Positions 1,871 to 48,041 of a stretch of 64,000 bases of DNA are shown here, piece by piece. Origin of the DNA: Nannocystis sp. (GTDB lineage: Bacteria > Myxococcota_A > Polyangia > Nannocystales > Nannocystaceae); contig NZ_JADJNN010000008.1 in assembly GCF_016714285.1 (NCBI RefSeq), positions 4,669 to 68,668 on the forward strand, given 5' to 3'. Every line of letters starts with the position of its first letter. Position 1 is the stretch's first letter. The notes under the pieces were generated by a model. It ran no database searches. It was not told the origin of the DNA and was given only the letters and a program-made list of their open reading frames with translations. The translations under genes were made by a program, and so were the position numbers.

Positions 1871-1945
<75 letters not shown>

Positions 1946-2041: not shown

Positions 2042-5000
2042 ATGAAGCCGTCGGACGCAGATCTCGGCGATACGACGGGTGTGCCCGAGTCGCCGGGCGT
2101 GAAGGCCACGCGATCGTCGGGGCCGCCGCTGCACACCTCGGGCGCGTCGATCGATCCGCTGGCGATGACCGGCACGAGCTCGGGTCAGGCGACGGCGCGG
2201 GTGGGTCGGCCGGGCTTCGACGTCGACGCCGAGCTGGCGCGCGCGCAGCTCGAGACGCGGCTCTACGGGGCCGGGCGCGGCGAGGGCGGGCCGCGGATCG
2301 GGAAGTATCAGATCCTCGATCACCTCGGGCGCGGCGGGATGGGCTCGGTGTACACGGTCTACAACCCGGACCTCGATCGCAAGAGCGTGATCAAGCTGGT
2401 CCGGCCCGATCGATCGAGCCCGGACAGCCGGCGGCGGCTGCTGCGGGAGGCCCGACTGACGGCGACGCTGTCGCATCCGAACGTGGTCCAGATCCACGAC
2501 TCGGGCGAGTACCTCGACGAGATCTACGTGGTGATGGAGTTCATCGCCGGGGTCGACCTCGACGCGTGGCGGCGGCAAGGGCCGCACGCGTGGCCGGAGG
2601 TGCTGGCGGTGTATCGCCAGGCGGGGCTCGGGCTGGCGGCCGCGCACGCGCAGGGGGTCGTGCACCGCGACTTCACGCCGCGCAACGCGATGCTCGGCGA
2701 GGATGGGCGGGTGCGGGTCCTCGACTTCGGGCTGGCGCACGCGCGGCGCGATGCGGGCGAGGTGATCGACGGTGCGCCGGGGTCTGGCGGACCACGGCCC
2801 GCTGCGGTGGCGGTGAGCGACGCGATGTCGGAGCCGGGGTCGGGGGACAGCTTGACGGCGACGGGGGCGATCGTCGGCACGCCGCGCTACATGTCGCCCG
2901 AGCAGTTGCGGAGCGTGCCGACCGACGGGCGCAGCGATCAGTTCAGCTTCTGCGTCGCGCTGTGGGAGGCGCTGCTCGGGCACCTGCCGTTCATGGGCGC
3001 CGATCTGTTCGAGTACAACGAGGCGGCGCTGGCCGGGGACATCCGGCCGCCGGAGGATCTGCGGGGGGTGCCGCGGCGGGTGTTGAAGGCGCTGCGGCGC
3101 GGGCTGGCGCCGCGGGCGGACGATCGCTTCGCGGACATGCACGCGCTGCTGGCGGAGCTCGACGTGCGGCCGCTGCGGCCGTGGATCGGGCTCGCGGGGG
3201 TGGCGGGGGCGCTGGCGCTGGTCGGGCTGTGGTTCCTCGCCCTGCCGGCGACGCCAGTGTCGCCGCGCGAGCAGTGTGCGAGCGAGTTGGCGGACGAGCT
3301 GCCGGTGACGTGGTCGGCGCTGCCCGGGCCGATCGCGGGGCGACTGGGGGAGTTCGCGGACCGCTGGCGGGCGGCGCGGGTCGAGCTGTGCGCGGCGGGT
3401 GTGGCGGGCGGGCTGCCGGCGCCGGCGCTGCGGCGCGGGCTGCGTTGCCTGGCGCAGCAGCGGGCGGTGTTCGACCTGGTGGTCGATCGGGTGACGGCTG
3501 GCGATGCGCTCGAGCTCGACCTCGGGGCGCTGCCGGACAGCGATCGGGTGGCGGCGTGCACCGATCCGCTGCGCCTCGCCGACGGGGCCGCGCCGCCGTC
3601 GCCCGCGGCGCGCGAGGCGGTGAGCCGGGTCGAGGCGGACCTGGCCCGCGCCGAGACGGCGCTGATCCTCGGGCGCTACGCCGAGAGTGAGGCGATCGCC
3701 GCGAGCGCGGTGCGGCGGGTCCGGGAGATCGGTCATGCGCCGACGCTGGCGGCGGCGCTGTACCAGCTGGCCCGCGCCGAGACCTACGGGCCGAACGCGG
3801 ACGCGGCCGAGGCGACGTTGCGCGAGGCGGCGGGGCTGGCCGAGCGGCACGACCTGCACGACCTCGCGGCGGACATTTATCTGCGCCTGGTGCGGGTGGC
3901 GATGGCCCACGGGCAGCGCAGCGCCGACGGCAGCGTGGTTCGCGGTCCTCGGCTACAAGCTGGCGCGGCTCGACGAGCGTCGCGGTCGGCGCTGGGCGGA
4001 GGGGCTCGAGTACCTCGGGGCGATCGCCCTCGACGCGCGTGAGCTGGCGACCGCCGAGAGTCTGTTCGAGCGGGGCGCGGCGGCCGAGGAGGGGGCCGGG
4101 CCGCTGCGTCGCGGCCTGGTCGAGCTGCGGCTCGGGCGGGTGCAGCGGCTGCGTGGCGATGCGGCGGGGGCGGCCGGGCGCTTCGCGCGGGGGCTCGCGC
4201 TGGCGGAGGAGGAGCTCGGGCCGGAGCACCCGCAGCTGGTGCAGTTCCTGGTCAACCTCGGCGAGGTGCAGCTCGAGCTGCGCGAGCTGGAGGCGGCGGA
4301 GGCGACGATCGGGCGCGGGCTGGCGATCTCTACGGGCGGGGCGGGCGGGGCGGGGCGCGGCGTGTACCGGCCGCAGCTGCTGCTCGCGGCGGCGCAGGTC
4401 GCCGAGCTGCGGGGCGACATGGCGGGCGCGGGGGCGCTGGCGCGGCAGGCCCGGGCCTTGCTGCGCGACCGGGCCCTGCCGGCCGATGTCCGCAGCTACC
4501 GCGGGGCGGTGCTCGACCTGGTGGCCCGGGCCGCGTTCGCGGCGGGCGACGCGACGGCGGCGCTGGACGCCTACAGCGAGCTGCTCGCGGTGCCGGAGGG
4601 GCACCTGTCCCGAGAGGCAGCTCGCTTGCTGATCGCGTACCGCAACGCGGCCGGGCTGGCGGTGACGCGCGAGCAGCCGGCGCTGGCGCTGCGCTTCGTG
4701 GCCGCGGCGGTGCCCCTGCTGGGCGAGCCGGGGCTGGCGGAGGCGGCCGGCGAGGCGCTGCGGGTCGATCTGGCGGCCCGCGAGGGGGAGGCCTTGCTGG
4801 CCCTGGGGCGGCCGGCGGCGGCGGTCCTGGTCGCCGAGCGCGCGCTCGAGCGCTGGGACCCGCAGGGCCGGCGGGAGGACGCCTCCACCGCCGACCTGCA
4901 CCTGCTGTGCTTCGAGGCGCTGAAGCAGCGGGCGCCGACGCAGGCGCTGCCGCACGCGCGGGCGGCCCTGCGATACTTCGCGAACGAGGCGTCGCTGCGC

Positions 5001-5057
5001 GAGATCACGGAGATCCTCGAGACATGGTTGCGCCGCTACCCGGGACCCTCGCGCTGA
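2042..5057 (+). CDS. Ser/Thr protein kinase fused to a C-terminal TPR-like repeat domain; reading frame shifts near 3925-3945 (frameshift or sequencing error)
   Basis: ATG at 2042; Hanks kinase motifs (GRGGMGSVY, VIK, HRDFTPRN, DFG, GTPRYMSPE) in frame 2 up to ~3930. From ~3930 the coding signal continues in frame 0 (AAWFAVLGYKLARLDERRGRRWAEGLEYLG... TPR-like helices) to the stop at 5057. Frame 2 after 3930 is Arg/Ala-rich junk ending at 4042. The ORF track therefore shows two pieces (1376..4042 and 3687..5057). Confidence 0.75.
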
Positions 5058-5082
5058 GCGAGGCCACCAGAAGGACCGAGAC

Positions 5083-5403
5083 ATGCCAGACCTGCTCACT
5101 GCATCCACGAATAGCTGCGATGACCCGAAGACCCCGCTGGTCGAGCTGTGTAGCGCGATCCGGCGGCCGAGGCCGTTGACGGGGAGCGTCGGCGGCGGCG
5201 GCGGCTCGGGTGGCAGCGGCCACATGCCGAACCCCGAGGAGCTGGTGGCCAAGGCGCTCGAGCACGTGTGGGACGCGCTGTCGGATCAGATCCAGACCCT
5301 GCGGGCCGAGAACCGCAGCTTGCAGGAGAAGATGGACGCGATGCAGCACAGCTTCGGCAGCGAGCTGGCGGCGGCGCGCAAGGTCGCCGAGCGCCAGCGC
5401 TGA
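5083..5403 (+). CDS. hypothetical small protein with a Gly-rich linker and a C-terminal coiled-coil (possible alternative start at ATG 5227)
   Basis: ORF 26 bp downstream of the kinase/TPR gene on the same strand, high GC3. C-terminal half (PNPEELVAKALEHVWDALSDQIQTLRAENRSLQEKMDAMQH...) is protein-like. Confidence 0.45.
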   Translation: MPDLLTASTNSCDDPKTPLVELCSAIRRPRPLTGSVGGGGGSGGSGHMPNPEELVAKALEHVWDALSDQIQTLRAENRSLQEKMDAMQHSFGSELAAARKVAERQR

Positions 5404-5490
5404 GCGTGACGGGTCGCCGCGGCGGCGCGACGCGAGGCCCTGGGATGAGGGGGCCGGCGTGCGCCGCCGCGGGATGTTGGCCTCGCTGGT

Positions 5491-5949
5491 TCACGCGGCG
5501 GCGCGGCGCGGGCGGGCGATCCGGAGATCGGGGCGCCCGCGCTCGAGCATGAAGCGCCACAGCGGCTTGTCGCTCTTGGCCCGGTTGCACGGGCCGCAGC
5601 TGGGCACCAGGTTGTCCGGGTGGTTGCTGCCGCCGCGCGAGCGCGGGACCACGTGGTCCCGCGTCACCTCGCGCTTGCACAGGCGCGCGCCGCAGTAGGT
5701 GCAGAGCGTGCGCACGTGCCAGAGGTAGTGGCGGAACTCGCTGGTGAAGCAGACATCGAGGCGGTCGTGGATAACGTCGGCGACGGAGGTCTTCTTGTAG
5801 CGTGCGGTCTCCCGGAGCCGGCCCAGACGCCCGTCGCCCTTGCCCTGGCGCAGGCCCATCTTGCGCAGATGGCGTGCCAGGTAGAACTCGGGGCCGCGCT
5901 CCGGGCGGGGCGTGAGGGTGTCGTATTCGTGTTTCAGCTTGACGTACAT
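5491..5949 (-). CDS. HNH endonuclease (small stand-alone HNH nuclease)
   Basis: 152-aa ORF with HNH motif C-YCG....-DH.VPRSRGG...DNLVPSC..CNRAKSDK. GGAGG Shine-Dalgarno sequence upstream of ATG 5949. 40 bp downstream of the AbrB-like gene on the same strand. Confidence 0.85.
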   Translation of the reverse strand: MYVKLKHEYDTLTPRPERGPEFYLARHLRKMGLRQGKGDGRLGRLRETARYKKTSVADVIHDRLDVCFTSEFRHYLWHVRTLCTYCGARLCKREVTRDHVVPRSRGGSNHPDNLVPSCGPCNRAKSDKPLWRFMLERGRPDLRIARPRRAAA

Positions 5950-5989
5950 GACGGCGCCTCCTTTCGGCTTGGAACGGGTGGTCGGTGGA

Positions 5990-6196
5990 TCAATCGCGGT
6001 AGGTCAGGGTGCTCCACTGCGGGACGGCGACCGGGCCGCCGCGGCGCAGCTCGACCTGGGCCTCGACCTCCATGTCGCCGCCGGCCAGGCGCACGCGGTC
6101 GCCGGTGCGGATGCACAGCTCGCGCAGGCGGGCCGGGGAGAGGGGGATGCAGTGGTCCTCGGTGCGGACCGTGATATCGGCGTGGATCGTGCGCAT
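5990..6196 (-). CDS. small AbrB/MazE/SpoVT-like (swapped-hairpin) protein, putative regulator/antitoxin or immunity partner of the HNH nuclease
   Basis: 68-aa ORF (MRTIHADITVRTEDHCIPLSPARLRELCIRTGDRVRLAGG...). Perfect AAGGAGG Shine-Dalgarno sequence 6 nt upstream of ATG 6194-6196. The pattern vR..D...IPl....LRelgI..GD.V.l resembles AbrB/MazE N-domains; this is pattern-based, not searched. Confidence 0.6.
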   Translation of the reverse strand: MRTIHADITVRTEDHCIPLSPARLRELCIRTGDRVRLAGGDMEVEAQVELRRGGPVAVPQWSTLTYRD

Positions 6197-6441
6197 GACG
6201 GCCTCCTTCTCGGCGGAGCGATGGATGAATGGACAGAGATAAAGCGCGCAGAGGGAGTTGAACCCTCGCTTCCTCCGTGGCAGGGAGGCGTGCGGCCACC
6301 AGCACCTTGCACGCAGATCGATGGATCGACGGGTGTGGCCGCGACGGGCCAATGCCGCGGCGAATCAGCGCCCACGGATATGTGGGTACTTGCGGAGCTG
6401 CGACGGCGGGCCGCGGTCCGACGGAGGGCCGATCGAGCGGG

Positions 6442-6490
6442 TGTCCCGATGTCGGGGTGCCCCGATGTCGGGGTGCCCCGATGTCGGGGG
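6442..6490. repeat. three tandem 16-bp direct repeats TGYCCCGATGTCGGGG, each an imperfect dyad (CCCGA-TG-TCGGG); candidate operator upstream of the AbrB-like/HNH operon
   Basis: Read directly in sequence 6442-6490. Followed by a 7-bp-arm palindrome GCTCGCT-C-AGCGAGC at ~6497-6511. Confidence 0.8.
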
Positions 6491-6516
6491 GCGCTCGCTC
6501 GCTCAGCGAGCGGGGC

Positions 6517-6699
6517 TCATTCGCTGCGGAGGTCGGGGCTGGCCTGCAGGTGATAACCTGTGTGGCCTGGCGCCGTACCTGCGAACCAGCGACCTCGTCC
6601 CGACTCGCTCGCATCGTTCGCGGCGAACAGGCCCTTCGCCTGCACTGGGGCGGCGATCGGGAGCTGGGCGCGAAGCGGCATGTCGTGGACGGAAAGCAT
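6517..6699 (-). CDS. hypothetical small ORF (60 aa) in intergenic region
   Basis: ATG 6699 preceded by AGAGGTG 5 nt upstream; mixed codon bias. Lies below a lower-GC putative promoter stretch (6700-6850) and is followed by a palindrome just after its stop. Could equally be noncoding. Confidence 0.3.
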   Translation of the reverse strand: MLSVHDMPLRAQLPIAAPVQAKGLFAANDASESGRGRWFAGTAPGHTGYHLQASPDLRSE

Positions 6700-6853
6700 G
6701 GTTCACCTCTTTTACAGGCGGGCAGTGTTCCCGAACGCCGCGCCGCTGTCAAGCACCTGAACGCGACGATTGTACGAATGCGGTGATAATTTTGTGGCCG
6801 GTCCGCGGGGCCTGCTTATATGCGCACTTTCGTTCTGATGGGTTTGTTCCGGA

Positions 6854-9199
6854 TCAGGGCGGCGCGATGCGGGCGCGGAGGATGTGGTCGCCGAGGGCGA
6901 GGGCGTCCAGGCGATCGGGATGACCGTGCTGGTCTGGGCGCAGGCGGCCGATCCAGGTGTAGCGGCCCTCGAGGTGCGGGGCGCGGGCGTGCATGAAGAA
7001 GAACTGGCTGCCGCCGGTGTCCTTGCCGGCGTCGGCGATGCCGACCGCGCCGCGATCGAAGGCGTGGTCGCCGGGCTCGCTCGGGAGCACGAAGCCGGGG
7101 CCGCCCCAGCCGTTGCCGTCGGGGTCGCCGCCCTGAAGCACGAAGCCCGGGACGTCGCGGTGGAAGCGGAGGCCGTCGTAGTAGCCGCGGCGGGTGAGGG
7201 CGACGATCTCGGCGACGGCCCAGGGCGCGGCGGTGGGGTCGAGGTCGATCTCGAGGTCGCCGACCTCGGTGCTGAGGATCCAGCGGATCGGGGCGCCGGG
7301 CAGGCTGCGCGGGTCGAGCGGCGGCGGGGGCAGTGCTGCGGCGGTGGCGATCGAGGCGGCGTTGCCCGGGCCCGGGTCGGGGGCGGTGGCGATCGCGGCG
7401 GGGCCCTGGCCCTGGCCCTGGCCGCGGAGCTGCTGCACGCAGGCGCGGGCGGCCTTGCGGACGGCGGGGCTGGCGTGGGCGCGGCTGGCCTCGCAGACGG
7501 GGAGACCGGCGGCGACACCGGTGGCCGCGAGGGTGGCGAGGAGGGTGCTGTGCAGCTCGGGCTCGCGGGCGGCGTGGGCGGTGGCGAGGGCGGCGAGGCG
7601 CTGCCACAGCGGATCGCTGGCGGCGAGAAGCGATGGCTTGGCGTGGGTCGGTGGCTTGTCGTGCGGTGCGGCGATCACATCGGCGGCCGATCCGACGACG
7701 CCGAGGACCGGGTCGGCGAGGGCGCGCAGCAGCCAGGCGTGGACGATCGTGGTGGTCGCGGGGTCGTGCCACAGCGGGCCGAGAGCGGCGACGGCGGCGA
7801 GGCGCAGCTGTGGATCGGTGGCGGTGAGGAGCGCGTCGAGCCGGGCGGCGCGCGCGGGCCAGGGGCCGCCGAAGCCGTGGATCAGCGGGCCGAGCTCGTG
7901 GGCCTCGCGCTCGCCGGGGCGCAGCAGCGGGCTCTGGCAGACGAGCGGCGGGCGCCAGCGCGGGTCGTGGGCGAGGCGCGCGGCGAGCTGGCAGTCGATG
8001 CGGGCGAGCAGGCGACGACGAGCTTCGCGGCGGGCGTCGTCGAGGTTGGCTGCGTTGGTGGGTGGGTTCGTGGGCGAGTTGTTGTTGGTCGCGGTGGGTG
8101 GGCTCGTTGGTGTGTTGTTGTTGGTCGTGGCGGGTGGGTTGATCGGCGAGTTGTTGGTGGTCGTGGTGGTGTTGCGATCGATCGCGGTGCGCAGCTGCTC
8201 GAGGGCGTGGCGCTCGCGGATCGAGGGGGCGGTGGTCTCGCTGGCGAGGCACGCGAGGGCGGCGTGGAGCTGGCGGGCGTGGGCGAGGCGCTGGGGCTCG
8301 TCCTGCGTGCGGTCGGCGATGCTGCTGCGGGCCCAGGCGAGGACGGCGAGGACGGCGGTCTGGCGATCGGGGGCGATGAGGGCGGCGAGGCGGCGCGGGT
8401 CGCTGGCGGCGGCGGGCAGCTCGCGGGTGAGGCAGGCTTGCAGCGGCGGTGTGGCGCTGCGGCGGACCAGGCCGGCGAGGGCGAGGCGCTGGAGCTCGCG
8501 GTCGCTGCTGCGGGTGTGGTCCCGCAGGAGGGCGAGGATCGACGGATCGGGGGGCGGCGTGTGCTCGTTGGCGAGGGCGTAGAGGGCGGCGTAGGTGAGC
8601 GCGGGGTCGCTGGCCAGGGCGAGGAGGTTGGCGCGGGTCGGGGCGTCGAGCGGGTGCTTGCGGCGACCGAGCACGCCGAGGGCGATCGCGGCGGTGCTGC
8701 GCAGGGCCGGGCTCGCGGTCGGGGCGAGGGCGTCGCGCAGGACGGGCAGAGATGCGGGGCCTCCGAGGCGGCCGAGAGCCTCGGCGATGGCGCGGCGCTC
8801 GTCGGCGTCGGCGCGCGGCCAGGCGGTGAGGAGGGCGGCGTCGAGGTCGGTGAGCTCGGTGTCGAGGAGGGCGGCGATGCCGAGCGCACGCGCGGCGTGC
8901 TCGCGTCGGCGAGGATCGTCGCCGCGGAGCAGGGTGAGCAGGGCGGCGATCGCCGGCGGGTCGCCGACGCGTGCGAGGGCGAGGATAACCGGGCCGGGAT
9001 CGGGGTCGCCGAGGCGAGCGATGAGGGGGGCGCTGTCGCGGAGCAGCTCGAGCTCGAAGAGGGGGGTCGCGGGGATCGTTGTCGTGGTTGGGGCGGGGCC
9101 GGGGGGCGCGGCGGGGACCTGCGGGGGCGCAGCGGGGACCTGCGGGGGCGCGCAGGCGAGCAGGCAGCTCAGGGTCGTGAGGGCGAGGGCCGGGCGCAT
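6854..9199 (-). CDS. HEAT/PBS-lyase repeat lipoprotein with C-terminal cyclophilin-type peptidyl-prolyl isomerase domain
   Basis: 781-aa ORF. Lipobox LSCLLAC at the N-terminus. Repeated ALG..GD..A...L helical repeats. C-terminal cyclophilin motifs (GYYDGLRFHRDVPGFVLQGGDP...GGSQFFF). Internal Asn/Thr/Pro-rich tandem repeat encoded by ~42-bp repeats at ~8040-8180. Confidence 0.85.
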   Translation of the reverse strand: MRPALALTTLSCLLACAPPQVPAAPPQVPAAPPGPAPTTTTIPATPLFELELLRDSAPLIARLGDPDPGPVILALARVGDPPAIAALLTLLRGDDPRRREHAARALGIAALLDTELTDLDAALLTAWPRADADERRAIAEALGRLGGPASLPVLRDALAPTASPALRSTAAIALGVLGRRKHPLDAPTRANLLALASDPALTYAALYALANEHTPPPDPSILALLRDHTRSSDRELQRLALAGLVRRSATPPLQACLTRELPAAASDPRRLAALIAPDRQTAVLAVLAWARSSIADRTQDEPQRLAHARQLHAALACLASETTAPSIRERHALEQLRTAIDRNTTTTTNNSPINPPATTNNNTPTSPPTATNNNSPTNPPTNAANLDDARREARRRLLARIDCQLAARLAHDPRWRPPLVCQSPLLRPGEREAHELGPLIHGFGGPWPARAARLDALLTATDPQLRLAAVAALGPLWHDPATTTIVHAWLLRALADPVLGVVGSAADVIAAPHDKPPTHAKPSLLAASDPLWQRLAALATAHAAREPELHSTLLATLAATGVAAGLPVCEASRAHASPAVRKAARACVQQLRGQGQGQGPAAIATAPDPGPGNAASIATAAALPPPPLDPRSLPGAPIRWILSTEVGDLEIDLDPTAAPWAVAEIVALTRRGYYDGLRFHRDVPGFVLQGGDPDGNGWGGPGFVLPSEPGDHAFDRGAVGIADAGKDTGGSQFFFMHARAPHLEGRYTWIGRLRPDQHGHPDRLDALALGDHILRARIAPP

Positions 9200-9367: not shown

Positions 9368-9901
9368 ATGGCGAGGTCGGTGCATATTCTGTCGTTGCTG
9401 GACGACAGCGACATCGAGTGGTTGGTGCAGGTCGGGCTGCGCCTGAGCGTGCCGCCGGTGGCTCCGCTGGTGGAGGAGGGGCTGCGCACGCCGTTCCTCT
9501 ACATCATTCTTTCGGGGGCCTTTCTCGTGACGCAGAGCGCGACGGGGGCGACGGAGCGGTCGCTGTCGGTGATCCAGCGCGGGGAGCTGGTCGGGGAGCT
9601 GTCGTATCTCGACGCGCGGCCGCCGTCGGCGACGGTGCGGGCGGCCCGGGCCTCGCAGGTGCTGGCGGTGGCGCGCTCGGAGGTCGCGCGCAGGCTGCAG
9701 ACGGACGTCGGGTTCGCGGCCCGCTTCTACCGGGCGCTGGGGATCACGGTGGCGATGCGGCTGCGGGCCCTGACGCGCGGCGAGCCGGAGGACGAGCCGG
9801 ACCTCGAGCAGCTCGGGCTGGTGACGGTGGACGAGCGGCGCTTCGAGGCGATCATGCGCCGGCTGGAGGGGCTCCCAGGCGACGCAGACGCAGCGAGTTG
9901 A
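9368..9901 (+). CDS. cyclic nucleotide-binding domain protein
   Basis: 177-aa ORF starting at ATG 9368. cNMP-binding fold pattern ([12 protein letters not shown]...[23 protein letters not shown]). High GC3. Confidence 0.7.
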
Positions 9902-12323
9902 GCACGACGGTGAGGCTGCTGAGGGCCATCGCCAGGGCGGCGAGGGCGGGGTGGAGCGCGCGCAGGAAGCCCGGGGCGGCGGCGATCGGGTAGAGGGCGC
10001 CGGCGGCCACCGGGATCAGGACGAGGTTGTAGATCGAGGCCCACAGCAGGTTCTGGCGGACCACGGCGAGGGTGCGGCGCGACAGCTCCAGGGCCTCGGG
10101 CAGGCCGCGGAGGTCGCTGCGCATGAGGGTGAGGTCGGCGGCGTGGATCGCGACCTCGGCGCCGCTGCCCATGGCGACGCCGAGGTCGGCCTGGGCCAGG
10201 GCGGGGCCGTCGTTGATGCCGTCGCCGACCATGCCGACCGGGCCGTCCCGCTGGAGCGTGACGATCGCGGCGGCCTTGTCGGCCGGGAGCACGCCGGCGA
10301 TCACGTCGGCGGCGGGGATGCCGGCCTGGGCGGCGATGGCGATGGCGACCTGGCGGTGGTCGCCGGTCAGCATGAGCACGCGCAGGCCGGCGCGGCGCAG
10401 GGTGGCGACGGCCTCGGCGGCCTCGGGGCGCAGGGCGTCGGCCAGGGCGAGCAGGCCGAGCAGGGCGCCGTCGCGGGCCAGCCAGACGAGGGTCTGCGGG
10501 GCCTGCAGGGCGGCGGCGGGGAGGGCGAGGAGGGCGGGTGTCGCTTGGGACAGGTGGGTGGCGGTGGCGGTGGATGTCCCGGCGGACAGGTCGGGTGTCG
10601 CTTGGGACAGGTGGGTGGCGGCTGTCCCGGGGGACAGGTTTGATGTCTCTTGGGACAGGTTGATCGTGGCGCTGGCGGTGGCTGTCCCGGCGGACAGGTC
10701 GGCGGCGAGGGCGGTGAGGGCGGTGGTGTCGACGTGGTTGCTGGTGAGCCAGCGTTCGCTGCCGATGAGGAGGTCGTGGCCGCCGACGCGGGTGCGCAGG
10801 CCGTGGCCGCCGACGGCGCGGAGGTTGTCGCTGGCGGGGAGTTCGAGGCCGGCGTCGCGGGCGGCGGTGACGATCGCGCGGGCGAGCGGGTGCTCGCTGC
10901 GCTGCTCGGCGGCGGCGGCGAGGCGGAGGAGCTCGCGCGGGTCGACGCCGGGGGCGGGCGCGAGGGCGCTGAGCGTGGGGCGGCCGCGGGTGAGGGTGCC
11001 GGTCTTGTCGAGGACGAGGGTGCGCAGGGCCTGGGCTCGCTCGAGCGCGGCCATGTTCTTGAACAGGACGCCGCGGCGGGCGGCGGCGCCGGTGCCGACG
11101 ACGATCGCGGTCGGGGTGGCGAGGCCGAGGGCGCAGGGGCAGGCGATCACGAGGACGGCGACGGCGCGCAGGAGGGCCGCGCCGGCGCCCTGGTCGGCGA
11201 GCAGCCACCACAGCGTGAAGGTGAGGCCGGCGAGGGCGAGGACGACGGGGACGAACACGGCGGCGACGCGGTCGACCAGGCGCTGCACGGGGGCCTTGCT
11301 GGCCTGGGCGGCGCGGACGAGGCGGACGATCTGGGCCAGGGCCGTGGCTGCGCCGACGCGGGTGGCCTCGATCTCGAGGGCGCCGTCGCCGTTGACGGTG
11401 GCGCCGGTGACGGGGTCGCCGGTGGTCTTGCCGACGGGGCGGCTCTCGCCGGTCAGCATGCTCTCGTCGACCTCGGAGGCGCCGCTGCGGACGACGCCGT
11501 CGACCGGGATCGCGGCGCCAGGGGCGACCAACACGGTGTCGCGGACCCGGACCTCTGCGGCGGGGATCTCGAGCTCGTGGCCGTCGCGGCGGACCCGGGC
11601 GGTGGCGGGGCGGAGCGCGAGCAGGGCCCGGATCGCGGCGCCGGCCTGGCCGCGGGCGCGGGTCTCGAGCAGGCGGCCGACGCCCACGAGGGTGATGATC
11701 GCGGCGGAGGTCTCGAAGTGGACGTGGTGGCCGAGAGCGTGGCTGCCGAGGGACTCGGCGACGACCACCGGGACGCTGGCGAGGAAGGCCACGCCGGCGC
11801 CGAGGCTGATCAGGACGTCCATGGTGGCGGCGCGGGCCTTGAGCGCGTGCCAGGCCCCGCGCAGGTGCGGCGCGCCGGTGTAGGCGAGGACCGGCAGGGC
11901 GAGCGCCAGCAGGAGCCACAGGAGCCACGGGGCGGCCGTCCAGGCGCCGAGCAGGTCGAAGTCGCGGCCCATACCGAGGACCATCAGCGGGGCGGTGCAG
12001 GCGATCCCGACGAGGACGCGGCGGCGCTGACTGGCGAGCTCGGCGGCGCGGGCCAGCAGCTCGGCATCGTCGCCGCCCTCGCTGCCCGCGATCACGCTGT
12101 AGCCGGCGGCCTCGACGGCGGCGACCAGCTCACCGCGAGTGACTGTGCCGGGGGTCGCCAGGTGCACGCGGGCGGTCTCACTGGCGAAGTTGACGGCGGC
12201 CGCGGCGACGCCGGGGACGCTGGTGAGCGCGCGTTCGACGGTGTTCGCACAGTTGGCGCAGCGCAGCCCGGCGATCGCCAGCTCGAACTCGGGGTCGTCG
12301 GCGGCGGGCACGGAGCCGAGCAT
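9852..12323 (-). CDS. heavy-metal-translocating P-type ATPase (CopA-like) with N-terminal HMA domain; carries an in-frame low-complexity insertion in the N-domain
   Basis: 823-aa ORF. CxxC metal-binding motif ([12 protein letters not shown]), CPC motif ([11 protein letters not shown]), DKTGTLT phosphorylation motif, [10 protein letters not shown] hinge. A 70-80 aa Ser/Thr/Ala-rich insertion (LSQET/LSAGT repeats) is encoded by the GGACAGGT repeat array at 10540-10720. Confidence 0.9.
10540..10720. repeat. intragenic array of GGGACAGGT / TGTCCCGGCGGACAGG repeat units inside the P-type ATPase gene
   Basis: Direct repeats of gtcgcttgggacaggtgggtggcgg (x2), tgtcccggcggacaggtcgg (x2) and related units read directly in sequence. 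Confidence 0.85.
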
Positions 12324-19649: not shown

Positions 19650-20564
19650 GGGACGATAACCTGGGTGGGAGCGCGGGCGGTGGGGCACGGGCCGGGGTGG
19701 GGCCGGCCCTCCGGCGAGCGACGCCTCCGCTAAAGGCAAGGCGGTCGGCGTCGCCGAGAGCCGGCCCCACCCCGGCCCTGAATGGGGTGACGTCGCTGCG
19801 CGGTATGTAGCAGCGAATGCGACGGGTTGCACTCGATATGTCGCATTGCTGTGAGCCTCGAAGCGCTCACCGTTCAATGCACTCAAATGGGTCCGGGGCA
19901 GTCCTGCGGAGCGTCCGTGTCGGGCGCGCACATTGCTGTCGGGCCCATGTCGCCGCAACAATCGTCGTGGCTGCAGAGGATGCAACTCCATTCGAAGCAG
20001 GCCGTGATGCGTCCAATGTGAATGAGTTGTGGTCGCCGTGTGGCACCTTTCGTTCCTGTCCGAAGAGGCAGGTTGCGAGTCTCAGGCCGGGGCGGGCCTC
20101 GGCGACGCCGTGATGCATGCAATGTGAATGAGTTGTGGTCGCCGTGTGGCACCTTTCGTTCCTGTCCGAAGAGGCAGGTTACGAGTCTCAGGGCCGGGGC
20201 GGGTCCGGCCTCGGCGACGCCGATCGTACCGTCCTTTAGCGGAGGCTTCGCTTGCCGGGGGGCCGACGGGGGGGTCGACCGAGTCAAGGGGCGCCGTGGA
20301 GAACGAAGTTCTCCAAAGGCGAACCCGCCCTGTCTGAGGGCGAACCCCCCGTCGGACATCCGGCTTCTCGAGGATACGCGCGCGCCCGCCGGACCCGCCC
20401 CGGTCCGTGCCACGATACTCGCGGAGTCCTGCTGTGATAGCGAGGATACTCGCGGAGTCCTGCTGTGATAGCCCGGTCCGTGCCACGATACTCGCGGAGT
20501 CCTGCTGTGATAGGCCGGTCCGTGCCTTGATATTCGCGGACCTGCGATAGCGAGGGGTCGGCCT
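19650..20564. repeat. repeat-rich noncoding region: two ~105-bp direct repeats (20005-20109, 20110-20221), 3-4 tandem ~42/27-bp units (20399-20555), flanking inverted 14-bp repeat (cctccgctaaagg / cctttagcggagg at ~19727 and ~20243)
   Basis: Read directly. Locally lower GC, with no ORF showing credible codon bias. Confidence 0.8.
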
Positions 20565-34260: not shown

Positions 34261-35241
34261 ATGGCCATCTTGCAGATCCGTCAAGCCATCCGCGACGCGA
34301 TGAAGGAGGAGATGCTCCGCGACGAGCGGGTGTTCCTCATGGGCGAGGAGGTCGGCCACTACAACGGGGCGTACAAGGCCAGCGAGGGGCTGCTCGAGCA
34401 GTTCGGGGCGCGGCGCGTGATCGACACGCCGATCGTCGAGACCGGCTTCGCCGGGGTCGGGATCGGGGCGGCGATGTGCGGGCTGCGGCCGATCATCGAG
34501 TTCATGACCTTCAACTTCTCGGCCGTGGCCTTCGACCAGATCTTGAACAACGCGGCCAAGATCCGGCACATGACGCACGGGCAGTTCGGGGTGCCGATCG
34601 TGTTCCGCGGGCCGAACGCAGCGGCGCACATGCTGGGTTCGACGCACAGCCAGGCATTCGAGCCGTTCTACGCGCACATCCCCGGGCTCAAGGTGGTCGC
34701 GGTGGCGACCCCCTACGACGCCAAGGGGCTGCTCAAGTCGGCGATCCGCGACGACAACCCGGTGGTCTTCCTCGAGGCCGAGCTGATGTACTCGGTGAAG
34801 GGCGAGGTGCCCGACGAGGAGTACACGATCCCGATCGGCAAGGCCGACATCAAGCGCGAGGGCAAGCACGTCACGCTGATCACCTGGGGGCAGGCGGTGC
34901 CGATCTCGCTGAAGACGGCCGAGCTGGCGGCGAAGGAGGGCATCGAGGTCGAGGTGATCGACCTGCGGACGCTGCGGCCGCTCGACACCGACGCGATCCT
35001 CGCCAGCGTGATGAAGACCAACCGCGCGGTGGTGCTGTTCCACGGCTGGCCCTACGGCGGGGTCGGCTGCGAGGTCATCGCCCGCATTCAGGAGCTGGCC
35101 TTCGACCACCTCGACGCGCCCGTGCTGCGCGAGTGCTACGAGGACGTGCCCTTCCCGTACGCCGAGAACCTCGAGCACCTGTGCCTGCCGACCCCCGAGA
35201 AGGGGCTCGCGGCGGTCAAAAAGGTGCTCTACAAGCGATAA
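34261..35241 (+). CDS. pdhB: pyruvate dehydrogenase E1 component beta subunit
   Basis: 326 aa. Transketolase-like pyrimidine-binding and C-terminal domains (MGEEVGHYNGAYK, FHGWPYGGVG). Confidence 0.9.
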   Translation: MAILQIRQAIRDAMKEEMLRDERVFLMGEEVGHYNGAYKASEGLLEQFGARRVIDTPIVETGFAGVGIGAAMCGLRPIIEFMTFNFSAVAFDQILNNAAKIRHMTHGQFGVPIVFRGPNAAAHMLGSTHSQAFEPFYAHIPGLKVVAVATPYDAKGLLKSAIRDDNPVVFLEAELMYSVKGEVPDEEYTIPIGKADIKREGKHVTLITWGQAVPISLKTAELAAKEGIEVEVIDLRTLRPLDTDAILASVMKTNRAVVLFHGWPYGGVGCEVIARIQELAFDHLDAPVLRECYEDVPFPYAENLEHLCLPTPEKGLAAVKKVLYKR

Positions 35242-35295
35242 CGGGCGATAACGGGCGATAACGGGCGATAGAAGCGACAGAAGGAAACAGACGCC

Positions 35296-36716
35296 ATGGC
35301 AACCGTGGTCCAGCTCCCGCGACTCAGCGACACGATGGAAGAGGGCGTGATCGCCAAGTGGCGGATCAAGGTCGGCGACAAGGTCAAGCGCGGCCAGGTC
35401 ATCGCCGAGATCGAGACCGACAAGGCGACGATGGAGTTCGAGTCATTCGACTCGGGCGTCGTGCTCAAGCTGATAGCGACGGAGGGCGAGACGCTGCCGC
35501 TCGGGGCGCCGATCGCCGTGCTCGGGCAGGCGGGCGAGAGCCCGGACGGGGCGAGCGCGGGTGCCGGCGCGAGTGTTGGCGCGAGCGAGCCGGCAGCGGC
35601 GACGCCGGCGGCTGAGGCGAGCAAGCCGGCAGCGGCGGCTGAGGCGAGCAAGCCGGCAGCGGCGGTGGCCGAGGCGGCGGCGAGCAGTCCCGAAGGCCAG
35701 GTAGCGAAGGACATGTCCAAAAAGCCAGCCGGGGACGGCGCGCGGGTGCCGGCGTCGCCGCTGGCGCGGCGTCTGGCGCGGGAGCACGACCTCGAGCTCG
35801 GCGAGATCAGCGGCAGCGGCCCGCACGGGCGGGTCGTGAAGGCGGACGTCGACCAGGCGATCGCGGCGGCTGGCAAGCCGCCAGCGACCGCTGCGGCTGC
35901 GGGGACGAGCGCTGCTGCGGCGCCGGTTGCTGCGGGGACGCGCTCGGGGGGAGCGACGGCCGCGGCCGCCGTGAAGTCCGTGGGTGCGGCGACGGCCGAG
36001 GTCGACGCCGACGGGCGGCCCTACGTGTCGCGCCCGGCGCGGACGATCAAGCTGAGCCAGATGCGCAAGACGATCGTCAAGCGCATGGGCCAGAGCAAGC
36101 GCGAGGCGCCGCACATCTACCTCACGACGGCGATCCGCATGGACCGGGCGCTGGCGGTGCGGGCCGAGATCAACGCGGCGGTCGACGGGACCAAGGTCAG
36201 CGTCAACGACCTCATCGTGCTGGCCTGCGCCAAGGCGCTGCGCAAGCACCCGAAGGTGAACGCCAACTACACCGAGGCCGGCATCGTCGAGCACGGCGAC
36301 ATCCACGTCGGCGTGGCGGTCGCGCTGGACGACGGGCTGGTGGTGCCGGTGGTCCGCTTCGCCGAGCAGAAGTCGATCACGGCGATCTCGCGCGAGACGC
36401 GGGACCTCGGCCTGCGGCCAAGGCCAAGGAGCTGCGCCCGGAGGAGATGGCGGGGAGCACCTTCACGATCAGCAACCTCGGGATGCTCGGCGTGGAGAGC
36501 TTCATGGCGGTGATCAACCCGGGCGAGGGGGCGATCCTCGCGGTCGGGGCGACGGCCGACGAGGCGGTGGTCGAGGACGGGGCCGTGGTGATCCGCAAGG
36601 TCATGCGCGTGACGATGTGCTCCGACCACCGGGCCTTCGACGGGGCCGACAGCGCCCGCTTCCTGCAGACGCTGAAGGCGCTGCTCGAGGCGCCGCTGGC
36701 GATGTTCAGCTGAGCG
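35296..36716 (+). CDS. dihydrolipoamide acetyltransferase E2 of pyruvate dehydrogenase; frame broken by an apparent 1-nt deletion near 36417 (probable sequencing error in a G run)
   Basis: Lipoyl domain (EIETDKATME), Ala/Pro-rich linkers and E3-binding domain in frame 1 up to ...SRETRDLGLR. The catalytic-domain continuation (AKAKELRPEEMAGSTFTISNLGMLGVESF...DHRAFDGAD) is in frame 0 to stop 36716. The ORF track shows 35296..36513 and 36447..36713. Confidence 0.85.
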
Positions 36717-46124: not shown

Positions 46125-48041
46125 TCACGCATCCTCCGCGGGGGCCTCGTTGGCGGCGGAGCTGTCCTCCGGGACAGCCGGACGCGTGCTGTCCTCCGGG
46201 ACAGCCGCGGACGCGTGCTCGGCGGAGCTGTCCTCCGGGACAGCCGCGGACGCGTGCTCGGCGGAGCTGTCCTCCGGGACAGCCGCGGACGCGTGCTCGG
46301 CGGAGCTGTCCTCCGGGACAGCCGCGCGCGCGCGCTCGACGACGCCGCGCTCCCACAGCTGCTCGTCGATCGCGCGCATGAGGGCCGCGGTGCTGCGGCG
46401 CTCGTTGGCGCTGATGAAGTAGGTGTGGCGGTCGGCGTCGGCGCGGCGGTGGTTGAGCTCGTCGGGGCCCAGGCGGTCGATCTTGTTGTAGACCCACAGG
46501 CGGGGCACGGCGCCGGCACCGATCTCGCCGAGGATCGCCTCGACGGTGGCGCGCTGCTGGTCCTGGTCGGGGTCGCTGGCGTCGACGACGACGAGCAGGA
46601 GGTCGGCCTCGGCGACCTCCTCGAGGGTGGCGGAGAAGGCCTGGACGAGCGCGGGGGGGAGGTCGCGGATGAAGCCGACGGTGTCGAGGAGGACGACCTC
46701 GTAGTCCTTGGGGAAGCGGATCCTGCGGACGCTGGGGTCGAGGGTGGCGAACAGCTTGTCCTCGGCGACGACGGCGCTGTCGGTGACGGTGTTGAGCAGG
46801 CTGCTCTTGCCGGCGTTGGTGTAGCCGACGATCGCGACCACGGGCACGCCGGTGCGCCGACGCAGGGCCCGACGCTGGTCGCGGCGCTGCTTGAGCGCGA
46901 GCAGGCGGCGCTCGAGGTCGTGGATGCGCTCCTTGGCGCGGCGGCGGTCGATCTCGAGTTTGGTCTCGCCGGGGCCGCGACCACCGATGCCGCCGGCGAG
47001 CCGCGACATGGCGGTGCCGTGGCCGATCATCCGCGGCAGGAGGTAGCGCAGCTGGGCCAGCTCGACCTGCAGCTTGCCGTCGGCCGAGGTGGCGTGCTGG
47101 GCGAAGATGTCGAGGATGAGGGTGGTGCGGTCGATGACCTTGAGGTCGGTGCGCTCGCCGATCTCGCGGGCCTGCGAGGGGGTGAGGTCGGGGTCGCAGA
47201 TCAGGAGCTCGACGTCCTGGGCGAGGGCCCGCACGAGCACGTCGCGCAGCTTGCCCTGGCCGAAGAAGGTGCGCGGGTCGGGGCCGGGGCGGCGCTGGGT
47301 GGCGAGGTCGACTAAGTGGAGGCCGTCGGTGCGGCACAGCTCGCGCAGCTCCTGCTCGCGGGCGTGCAGCTCGGGGCCCTCGCCCTGGTGGATCATGAGG
47401 GCCATGGCGCGGGTGCCCTGCGACTCGGCGCGCGCGCCCGCGGTGGCGGCGACGAGGCCGGCCTCGAGGTCGCGGATGAAGCCGAGGAAGTCGGAGGGCA
47501 TGTCCGCGGCGGGCCGCATGCCGGTGGTGTGGCCGGGGTCGTCGTCGTCGCGGGCGAGCACGCCGAGCGGGACGCGCGGGAAGCCGCGCACGACGAAGAT
47601 GTCCTTTGAGCCAGGTTGTGGCGGGGCCAGGCTGGCGAGGTCGATCTGGACGCCGGCGGGGCCGGTGTGGATCGCGGCGAGGAGGTCGAGGCGCAGCTTG
47701 GCGAGGTCGGCGAGCTCCTCGCGGGTCGGCGGGTCGGGGACCAGGTGGGTGAGGACCAGCCGGACGCCGCGCAGGCGGCCGCCCTGGCCGCGCACGCGGG
47801 TGAACTCCGGGAGGGCGAGGCTGTGGGCGTCGCCGAGGATGACGCGCTGCACGCGGCCGCGGCGGTCGATGAAGAGGCCGAGCTGGCGGTTGAGCTGGTG
47901 CGAGAGCTCGAGCAGGTCGCGCGCGAGCACGGCCGAGATGACGCTCGTCGGCGGGACCTGGCGCGCGCCGAGCCGCTGCAGCGCGCGGGCCTGGCTGCTC
48001 TTGAGGTTCGCCGTGTCGCCGTGGACGATCGGGTCGCTCAC
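46125..48041 (-). CDS. hflX: GTPase HflX with N-terminal extension and C-terminal AAVPEDSSAEHAS tandem-repeat tail
   Basis: GTG 48041 overlaps the stop of the upstream gene (GTGA). HflX N-domain and G-domain motifs (GYTNAGKSSLLN, DTVGF, NKID). Five C-terminal 13-aa repeats encoded by 39-bp tandem repeats at 46160-46326. Confidence 0.9.
   Translation of the reverse strand: MSDPIVHGDTANLKSSQARALQRLGARQVPPTSVISAVLARDLLELSHQLNRQLGLFIDRRGRVQRVILGDAHSLALPEFTRVRGQGGRLRGVRLVLTHLVPDPPTREELADLAKLRLDLLAAIHTGPAGVQIDLASLAPPQPGSKDIFVVRGFPRVPLGVLARDDDDPGHTTGMRPAADMPSDFLGFIRDLEAGLVAATAGARAESQGTRAMALMIHQGEGPELHAREQELRELCRTDGLHLVDLATQRRPGPDPRTFFGQGKLRDVLVRALAQDVELLICDPDLTPSQAREIGERTDLKVIDRTTLILDIFAQHATSADGKLQVELAQLRYLLPRMIGHGTAMSRLAGGIGGRGPGETKLEIDRRRAKERIHDLERRLLALKQRRDQRRALRRRTGVPVVAIVGYTNAGKSSLLNTVTDSAVVAEDKLFATLDPSVRRIRFPKDYEVVLLDTVGFIRDLPPALVQAFSATLEEVAEADLLLVVVDASDPDQDQQRATVEAILGEIGAGAVPRLWVYNKIDRLGPDELNHRRADADRHTYFISANERRSTAALMRAIDEQLWERGVVERARAAVPEDSSAEHASAAVPEDSSAEHASAAVPEDSSAEHASAAVPEDSTRPAVPEDSSAANEAPAEDA
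46160..46326. repeat. five tandem ~39-bp repeats each containing the perfect palindrome GCTGTCC-TCCG-GGACAGC, inside the 3' end of hflX
   Basis: Read directly (gagctgtcctccgggacagccgcggacgcgtgctcggcg x5). Confidence 0.9.

Follow-up and report, generated by a model that had tools for sequence, protein, structure and literature searches.

What brings a small gene and a stand-alone HNH endonuclease gene together on one strand of a Nannocystis chromosome, and what would the pair be doing there? The question is raised by a 64-kb stretch of DNA (the window, meaning the whole stretch analysed) from a metagenome-assembled genome of Nannocystis sp., in which a gene for a 68-amino-acid (68-aa) protein is followed by the gene for a 152-aa HNH endonuclease. 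A sequence-only reading had likened this arrangement to a toxin-antitoxin or nuclease-immunity module, with three 16-bp repeats as the plausible operator of a self-regulating AbrB/MazE-like protein. The comparison with related loci reported here points to a different origin: the module is probably the protein-coding remnant of a reduced, domesticated tRNA-array cassette of phage type, with two array-passenger proteins, and not a toxin-antitoxin cassette.

Layout of the locus

The elements of the locus follow one another on one strand of the window in the order leader, tRNA-Gly(GCC), 68-aa gene and HNH gene. The two open reading frames (ORFs) are as first described, the small one standing behind an AAGGAGG ribosome-binding site and the HNH ORF beginning 40 nucleotides (nt) after its stop codon. 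The tRNA gene had been overlooked. It sits between the 16-bp repeats and the small ORF, which starts 46 nt past the tRNA 3' end; because the tRNA gene intervenes, the repeats lie 125-180 nt upstream of this gene and not directly upstream of the small ORF. The core features are the following.

6243-6314, minus strand: tRNA-Gly(GCC) gene, with no encoded CCA (called by ARAGORN; 48.9 bits with the Rfam tRNA model, whose gathering score is 29)
6202-6208, minus strand: AAGGAGG, ribosome-binding site of the small ORF, 6 nt ahead of the ATG
5990-6196, minus strand: small gene, encoding a predicted 68-aa PUA-like beta-barrel protein, WP_293251912.1, annotated as hypothetical protein (coding 5993-6196, stop 5990-5992)
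5957-5964, minus strand: AAAGGAGG, ribosome-binding site of the HNH ORF
5491-5949, minus strand: HNH gene, 152-aa endonuclease WP_293251910.1 (coding 5494-5949, stop 5491-5493)

Relationship to tRNA arrays

In Nannocystaceae loci (window, L004, L007, L011 and L013-18), tRNA genes occur 14-48 nt upstream of the small ORF and on the same strand. They number from one to four, and the window, with one adjacent tRNA, represents the most reduced version. Two distant stand-alone members of the small-protein family with readable context, P0080 and P0079, are likewise encoded among tRNA genes. The orders are given below, with protein genes in brackets.

L004, ahead of the small ORF: Ser(GCT)-Gly(GCC)-Ala(CGC)-Ala(GGC)
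L007, ahead of the small ORF: a Ser-like tRNA and Ala(GGC)
Five Nannocystis species, ahead of the small ORF: Ala-Ala; L016: four Ala genes
Window and close relatives, ahead of the small ORF: Gly(GCC) alone
P0080, on a 527-kb contig: Arg, Ser x4, Gly, ?, Gly, Ala, (bL12), Ala, (KptA/Tpt1), Ala(CGC), (small), Trp, Cys, (HNH)
P0079: Gly, Gly, Ala, Ala, Ala(GGC), (small), Trp, Cys, (HNH)

The arrays that enclose both the small and the HNH gene hold 13 tRNAs in L093, L112 and L113 and seven each in L091 and L114. Their order is fixed, ...Gly, Ala, Ala, (small), Trp, Cys, ...(HNH), and the tRNA order of the Nannocystaceae loci is a subset of it. Over their full length, the window proteins are 49% (HNH, N-terminal domain included) and 44% (small protein) identical to those of L093. 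The L093 locus is itself identical to two viral contigs of IMG/VR, 372 and 497 kb long, and a third viral contig of this catalogue (L114, 230 kb) keeps the same order with two extra ORFs, one of them on the opposite strand, between Cys and HNH. L112-L114 were taken from IMG/VR, and the contigs bearing arrays measure 230-527 kb.

The tRNA-Gly gene is a second link between the chromosomal and the phage-like loci. The window copy forms a cloverleaf and exceeds the Rfam gathering score, yet it carries A at position 8 and U at position 14, where canonical tRNAs have U8 and A14, and its D-arm is unlike that of canonical Gly tRNAs. A compensatory T-stem change is found in the L108 copy. This non-canonical type, defined by A8, U14, a GTGY/TGTGG/GCAC D-arm and the lack of an encoded CCA, is common to Nannocystaceae chromosomes and jumbo-phage-like tRNA arrays, at the following positions.

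Window: 6243-6314, minus strand
L011: 427-497
L004: 3427-3497
L093: 981-1052
L114: 171-243

Identity of the window tRNA-Gly reaches 76-77% with two phage-array genes, tRNA-Gly(GCC) of L093 and tRNA-Gly(CCC) of L114, but only 53-57% with the canonical Gly tRNAs that accompany them (54-57% for Gly(TCC)). Given the shared proteins, the shared order and the unusual tRNA-Gly, it follows that the whole locus, tRNA included, shares ancestry with tRNA arrays of phage type. In Nannocystis the small and HNH genes have become neighbours through the loss of the tRNAs that lay between them.

The gene context of L093 fits a huge phage. Its tRNA array holds genes for ribosomal protein bL12 and for the RNA 2'-phosphotransferase KptA/Tpt1. 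Unannotated small ORFs crowd the surrounding 20 kb (L194, on the 527-kb contig), where at least four more HNH/EndoVII genes stand free and where a TnpB/Y1 transposase pair of IS605 and clustered NAD-salvage and ADP-ribose genes are also found. Huge phages are known that carry ribosomal proteins as well as many tRNAs (PMC7162821).

The possibility of an integrated element flanked by two copies of the tRNA 3' end was rejected, as neither a second copy of the tRNA-Gly 3' end nor an att-like repeat occurs in the window; there is therefore no sign of a recently integrated element.

A further protein, about 80 aa long and marked by the motif FPLVNSEG(I/V)xLDVL, is encoded at L114 787-1029, L096 2488-2733 and L092 488-757. 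Its gene lies within the tRNA array of L114 and directly upstream of a small-barrel gene in the two other contigs. The protein matches no Pfam family, and the array gene set may include it as a third member.

Conservation of the pair

Small genes were sought by tblastn and by profile search of six-frame translations, reaching 4-5 kb around the HNH gene. Immediately ahead of the HNH gene, one is present in the window and in L004-L020, L024, L027, L031 and L102-L111, with a gap of 34-48 nt in loci of the Nannocystis type; a looser neighbourhood is seen in L091, L093 and L114. In the distant loci the two genes are parted by tRNA-Trp and tRNA-Cys (L091, L093) and, in L114, additionally by the opposite-strand ORF. 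The profile search finds no small gene within 4-5 kb of HNH in L001-3, L021-23, L025-26, L028-30 and L032-33. These orphan HNH genes include those of L001-3, 77% identical to the window protein, and a group at 50-55% identity, and they retain all catalytic and zinc residues. What stands of the two-gene module first proposed is a genuine, co-conserved pair of neighbours, but intact HNH genes also occur without a small gene nearby.

These results bear directly on the idea of a toxin-antitoxin or nuclease-immunity pair, in which the small protein would neutralise the HNH nuclease and repress the operon through the 16-bp dyads. Such a pair would explain the co-conservation and the position of the small gene, 34-48 nt ahead of the nuclease gene on the same strand. 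It would also suit the opposite charges of the two proteins (isoelectric point, pI, 6.7 for the small protein against 10.4 for HNH), as well as the acidic C-terminal tails of several small-protein orthologues and the association of the small domain with other partners (TPR fusions and the 80-aa FPLVNSEG protein). However, since the orphan HNH genes are intact, an obligate toxin-antidote relationship does not fit, nor do the tRNA genes and the opposite-strand ORF that separate the pair elsewhere. Moreover, the small protein matches no AbrB/MazE, other antitoxin or immunity family by sequence or fold, the repeats lie upstream of the tRNA and are absent from the compared close relatives, and the PADLOC matches of the HNH protein cover only the generic HNH core. 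This explanation is accordingly regarded as very unlikely.

In L019, L020, L024 and L027 the small and HNH genes are 250-370 nt apart, and the interval contains T-arm-like remnants (one, recognised by eye, lies in L019) or unrelated short tandem repeats (for example CCGAGAA x9 in L024).

The small protein

The 68-aa protein has 23 homologues at 64-97% identity, and an exhaustive profile search returns only 15 cluster representatives of its family. The gene is under purifying selection (ratio of nonsynonymous to synonymous substitution rates, dN/dS, 0.22-0.6), and its GC content at third codon positions (GC3) is host-like at 0.97. The structure is predicted with confidence (predicted local distance difference test, pLDDT, 95) as a PUA-like beta-barrel, a small pseudo-barrel that can be superimposed on PUA domains or on N-terminal domains of RsmE, the latter being its closest match.

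The AbrB/MazE identity first given to this protein is not borne out. The SpoVT-AbrB Pfam profile has no match in the window protein and two orthologues at E-values up to 10, and AbrB and MazE are absent from the structural match lists for the model. AbrB/MazE proteins form interdigitated, swapped-hairpin dimer barrels, whereas the model is a closed monomeric barrel, and no operator is conserved. The same Pfam scan gives sub-threshold matches to Molydop_binding in all three proteins (E 2.8e-4 to 0.2) and to DUF3616 in the window protein only (E 0.22). There is no match in NCBIfam, PADLOC or PHROGs, no relative in the phage GenBank collection and no significant match in the BFVD viral structure library. 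On the predicted model, the 68-aa protein is a conserved PUA-like beta-barrel family and not an AbrB/MazE protein.

The kinship with RsmE is one of fold. The N-terminal PUA-like domain of this 16S rRNA m3U1498 methyltransferase (4j3c, 2egv, 1v6z) has no detectable sequence relationship to the small protein, with 7-19% identity. The small protein stands alone, without a methyltransferase domain, and is neutral to acidic (pI 5-8) rather than basic.

The presence of a PUA-superfamily fold next to an HNH gene recalls the fused PUA/EVE-HNH modification-dependent restriction endonucleases, for example VcaM4I and TspA15I (Lutz et al. 2019, PMC6765204), which likewise combine such a fold with an HNH nuclease. 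By this comparison the pair could be a split restriction enzyme serving anti-phage defence, in which recognition of a modified base by the PUA-like protein would guide the nuclease, and the label 'McrA' often given to the HNH protein in sources agrees with it. Here, however, the two genes are separate and not always adjacent, and the similarity to reader domains is weak, the 68-aa barrel being much smaller than the known ones and without a PADLOC match. The fixed place of the genes within tRNA arrays of phage-like genomes, rather than in a defence island, is unexpected for a host defence gene. A role of this kind is thus highly improbable, the least probable of those considered.

The small-barrel domain also occurs N-terminally in TPR-repeat proteins and in one protein with a hydrophobic C-terminal stretch (P0084, P0086 and P0088, 309-426 aa, and P0089, 138 aa). 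Acidic C-terminal tails, such as DDEPEDEDEGD, are found on the distant orthologues of L019 (4556-4822), L020, L024 and L027.

The HNH protein

The HNH domain reported from the sequence is confirmed by Pfam (PF01844, E 4e-12, residues 83-128). Membership of the HNH superfamily is evident from the profile match together with the catalytic His and Asn residues and four zinc-binding Cys residues; C83, C86, D98, H99, N113, C118, C121 and N122 are invariant in 25 family sequences. The profile matches the Geobacter HNH protein 4h9d (E 2e-12), which with the HNH domains of Cas9 and IscB makes up the nearest solved relatives. The beta-beta-alpha-Me zinc-finger nuclease core (residues 81-130) is preceded by a family-specific basic N-terminal domain (residues 1-80). 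This conserved domain has no match in Pfam or the PDB, and its AlphaFold2 model is poor (pLDDT 62). The protein as a whole is very basic, and its gene is under purifying selection (dN/dS 0.26-0.5), with a host-like GC3 of 0.94.

Full-length homologues in the reference genomes are found only in assemblies of Nannocystis, Nannocystaceae and related Polyangia, and matches in the phage GenBank collection cover the HNH core only. Two sets of apparent relatives were set aside: the plasmid matches are generic IscB or HNH genes without tRNA context, and the Anabaena delta plasmid carries an HNH/small-ORF pair that has no relationship to this one and no tRNAs close by.

The upstream region

For comparison of the upstream region, close relatives are the loci whose HNH proteins are at least 90% identical to that of the window (L011, L102-L111). 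The window features concerned are these.

6724-6752, minus strand: promoter-like site, TTGACA (6752-6747), 17 nt, AACACT (6729-6724)
6517-6699, minus strand: leader with a 60-codon ORF (MLSVHDMPLRAQ...) behind an AGAGGTG ribosome-binding site
6496-6512: palindrome CGCTCGC-TGA-GCGAGCG, 4 nt past the leader ORF stop, a hairpin in the predicted leader RNA fold
6439-6492: three tandem 16-bp units, each with the dyad CCCCGA-TG-TCGGGG (repeat family D1)
6371-6386, minus strand: hairpin CCCAC-ATATCC-GTGGG, 57 nt upstream of tRNA-Gly

A TTGACA element with a -10 element of the form xAxACT, at a spacing of 17/18, stands at the matching place in L103, L108 and L011. The TTGACA-17-AACACT site is a putative promoter and the likely start of a transcript comprising leader, tRNA, small gene and HNH gene.

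The start of the leader ORF, its first 12-35 codons, is conserved upstream of every HNH gene of the family examined, even those without a tRNA or small gene. It is found by tblastn in L001-3, L004-5, L007-9, L011, L012 and L102-L111, in related or altered form in L021/22/28/29, and it reads ML/VxVHDMP(I/L)RAQ in the close relatives. Nevertheless, a dN/dS of about 1 and a GC3 of 0.77, against 0.93-0.97 for real genes here, led to the rejection of a real small protein, and for these reasons the leader is probably a regulatory upstream ORF or a leader RNA. A classical attenuator after the leader ORF is unsupported, as hairpins are present with no T-run behind them.

After the leader ORF start, the close relatives share a spacer of about 300 nt. 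The palindrome is present in the window as first described, and at its position the relatives have a different short hairpin, CGGCC-CCC-GGCCG, followed by TTTC. The hairpin core (A)GTACCCACAT ahead of the tRNA is kept in L011, L102-L110 and L012.

The 16-bp dyad repeats exist: Tandem Repeats Finder (TRF) reports 6439-6489 with period 16, 3.2 copies, 97% matches and a score of 95, and the dyad motif occurs nowhere else in the window. Their interpretation as a conserved autoregulatory operator finds no support. It is a tRNA gene that they precede, and none of the relatives compared (L011 and L102-L110) has them. The small protein, measured in two of these relatives (L103 and L108), keeps 90% identity although the repeats are lacking; they are therefore not a conserved operator. 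One similar unit, CGACATCGGGACACC, is present in L001, and unrelated short tandem repeats occupy the spacers of other orthologous loci. The repeats are best seen, from this comparison, as a lineage-specific, recent local triplication of a hairpin-forming leader element. The window leader RNA has a predicted fold of -107 kcal/mol (z-score -4.85), strong folding being expected of repeated palindromes. Tandem repeats are common in the window (231 TRF rows with a score of at least 30 in 64 kb); the 16-bp array is real but not exceptional.

The conserved leader brings into view a function in RNA metabolism or translation, whereby the pair would have tRNA or other RNA as its target, for example for repair, processing or quality control, or would take part in a translation-stress response switched through the leader ORF. 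The fold of the small protein is nearest to RNA-binding PUA-like domains of rRNA and tRNA enzymes, and bL12 and KptA/Tpt1 are its array neighbours in L093. There is also a precedent in Anabaena, where a tRNA array and an HNH gene are co-induced by translation inhibitors (PMC8421152). On the other hand, the small protein is not basic, and the leader ORF has no protein-level constraint past its start and no clear terminator behind it. HNH nucleases, moreover, are as a rule DNA enzymes. A function of this kind is considered unlikely, but less so than the other alternatives.

In a bolder version of the phage-cassette origin, the cassette would have been domesticated as a stress-switchable unit: the upstream-ORF start of the leader would sense the state of translation and turn on the A8/U14 tRNA-Gly, the PUA-like protein and the HNH protein, the last two acting as a pair on tRNA or RNA or on tRNA genes. 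Were this true, the accessory proteins of tRNA arrays would include a functional class of a new kind, common to huge phages and their hosts. It is put forward as a speculation that is quite unlikely to hold.

Proposed explanation

The reading preferred here, that of a reduced and domesticated array cassette, can be put as a sequence of steps. Transcription would begin about 410 nt upstream of the tRNA, at the TTGACA-17-AACACT site, and pass through the structured leader, whose RNA structure the 16-bp dyads may affect; tRNA processing would then free tRNA-Gly and a two-gene mRNA. Co-transcription with the tRNA is the simplest reading, because the 46 nt that separate tRNA and ATG could hardly accommodate a promoter and none is flagged. 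In the tufB operon of E. coli, four tRNA genes are followed by tufB, which provides a precedent for co-transcription of tRNA and mRNA. The HNH protein is probably a site-specific DNA endonuclease, which by analogy with the array HNH genes of mycobacteria, cyanobacteria and phages would be of the homing type and would have been kept after array reduction. The barrel protein would be a second array passenger and may act as a partner or modulator of the very basic nuclease.

Several points weigh against this reading. A strict consensus scan of 5000-7200, which takes in the intervals from the tRNA to the small ORF and from one ORF to the other, flags no promoter or terminator; the promoter, the co-transcription and the processing are all deduced from sequence, and the biochemical roles of the two proteins are drawn from sequence, predicted models and analogy. 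For a PUA domain that binds nucleic acids, the small protein's pI of 5-8 is out of the ordinary. The cyanobacterial HNH protein linked to an array is homologous in the HNH core only. That the large contigs are viral is based on the IMG/VR catalogue and local gene content, with no hallmark virion genes seen. Finally, the locus in Nannocystaceae looks single-copy and vertically inherited, with no att-like repeat, which makes active homing today doubtful.

Comparison with known systems

HNH homing-type genes are associated with arrays of tRNA genes in the segB region of phage T4 and the tRNA region of phage T5. The class of HNH genes in tRNA arrays is thus already known. In the tRNA array units of mycobacteria no coding sequence is more widespread than HNH (Morgado and Vicente 2018, PMC5966550), and in cyanobacteria an HNH gene (all8564) is conserved beside a long tRNA array, translation inhibitors inducing the two together (Santamaria-Gomez et al. 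2021, PMC8421152); the latter study cites T4 SegB as a homing precedent. The Nannocystis locus resembles these systems in that a small free-standing HNH gene lies in or beside a same-strand run of tRNAs, in that such loci occur both in phage-like or mobile genomes and on chromosomes, and in the RNA- or translation-related passengers (bL12, KptA) nearby.

There are also differences. The HNH subfamily is not the same: with the HNH protein at the 24-tRNA array of the Anabaena delta plasmid, the alignment by hhalign (98% probability) covers only columns 82-129, a core of about 48 residues, and the N-terminal domain is not shared. A constant 68-aa PUA-like companion is present here, whereas none is described for those arrays, and the array of the window is cut to one tRNA. 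Regulation of the cyanobacterial array is due to tandem 9-nt repeats over the -10 box and the transcription start site (PMC8421152), whereas the window repeats lie about 230 nt downstream of the putative promoter. As far as literature searches reach, the HNH subfamily, its N-terminal domain, the PUA-like companion, the conserved leader and the non-canonical tRNA-Gly have not been described.

tRNA arrays are increasingly seen as mobile, inducible tRNA reserves that aid phages and bacteria against attacks on tRNA or translation, and why HNH genes travel with them is unexplained. The Nannocystis locus makes this question experimentally approachable. In culturable myxobacteria it presents such an array in compact form, on the chromosome and apparently inherited vertically, with an odd tRNA, a barrel protein, an HNH protein with a novel N-terminal domain and a leader, and it links Nannocystaceae chromosomes to jumbo-phage-like genomes. 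There is a corrective value as well. The pair recognised in the sequence-only reading is real, but its AbrB identity, its operator and its toxin-antitoxin logic are not sustained, and the apparent operator-antitoxin-toxin design would be a by-product of array reduction and local repeat expansion.

Downstream region and other features of the window

Two features lie downstream of the HNH gene or across its end.

5461-5504: GC-rich inverted repeat spanning the HNH stop codon (repeat family I18)
1871-1945, minus strand: tRNA-Pro(CGG) (ARAGORN), with its own TTGACA/TATAAA hexamers at 1984-1958

The inverted repeat at 5461-5504 is a possible transcript end between convergent genes, with no T-run and no flag in the consensus scan. 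In close relatives tRNA-Pro(CGG), likewise with TTGACA/TATAAA hexamers of its own, lies 150-190 nt behind the HNH gene; in the window a 3.4-kb block on the plus strand (about 2051-5403) separates the two, its three genes encoding a Ser/Thr kinase, a TPR protein and a coiled-coil protein of 106 aa.

Elsewhere in the window, tandem repeats that are long or perfect are found at 20001-20203, 20414-20540, 35235-35270, 35606-35665 and 46154-46324. Some contain palindromes, for example GCTGTCCTCCGGGACAGC, and repeat expansion is common in the genome. A 48-bp tandem repeat at 10531-10702 encodes a repetitive insertion in a P-type ATPase (ORF 9852-12323, minus strand). It adjoins a 97-nt 'tRNA-Ala(GGC)' called by ARAGORN at 10824-10920 on the plus strand, within the same ATPase ORF, and this call is probably a false positive.

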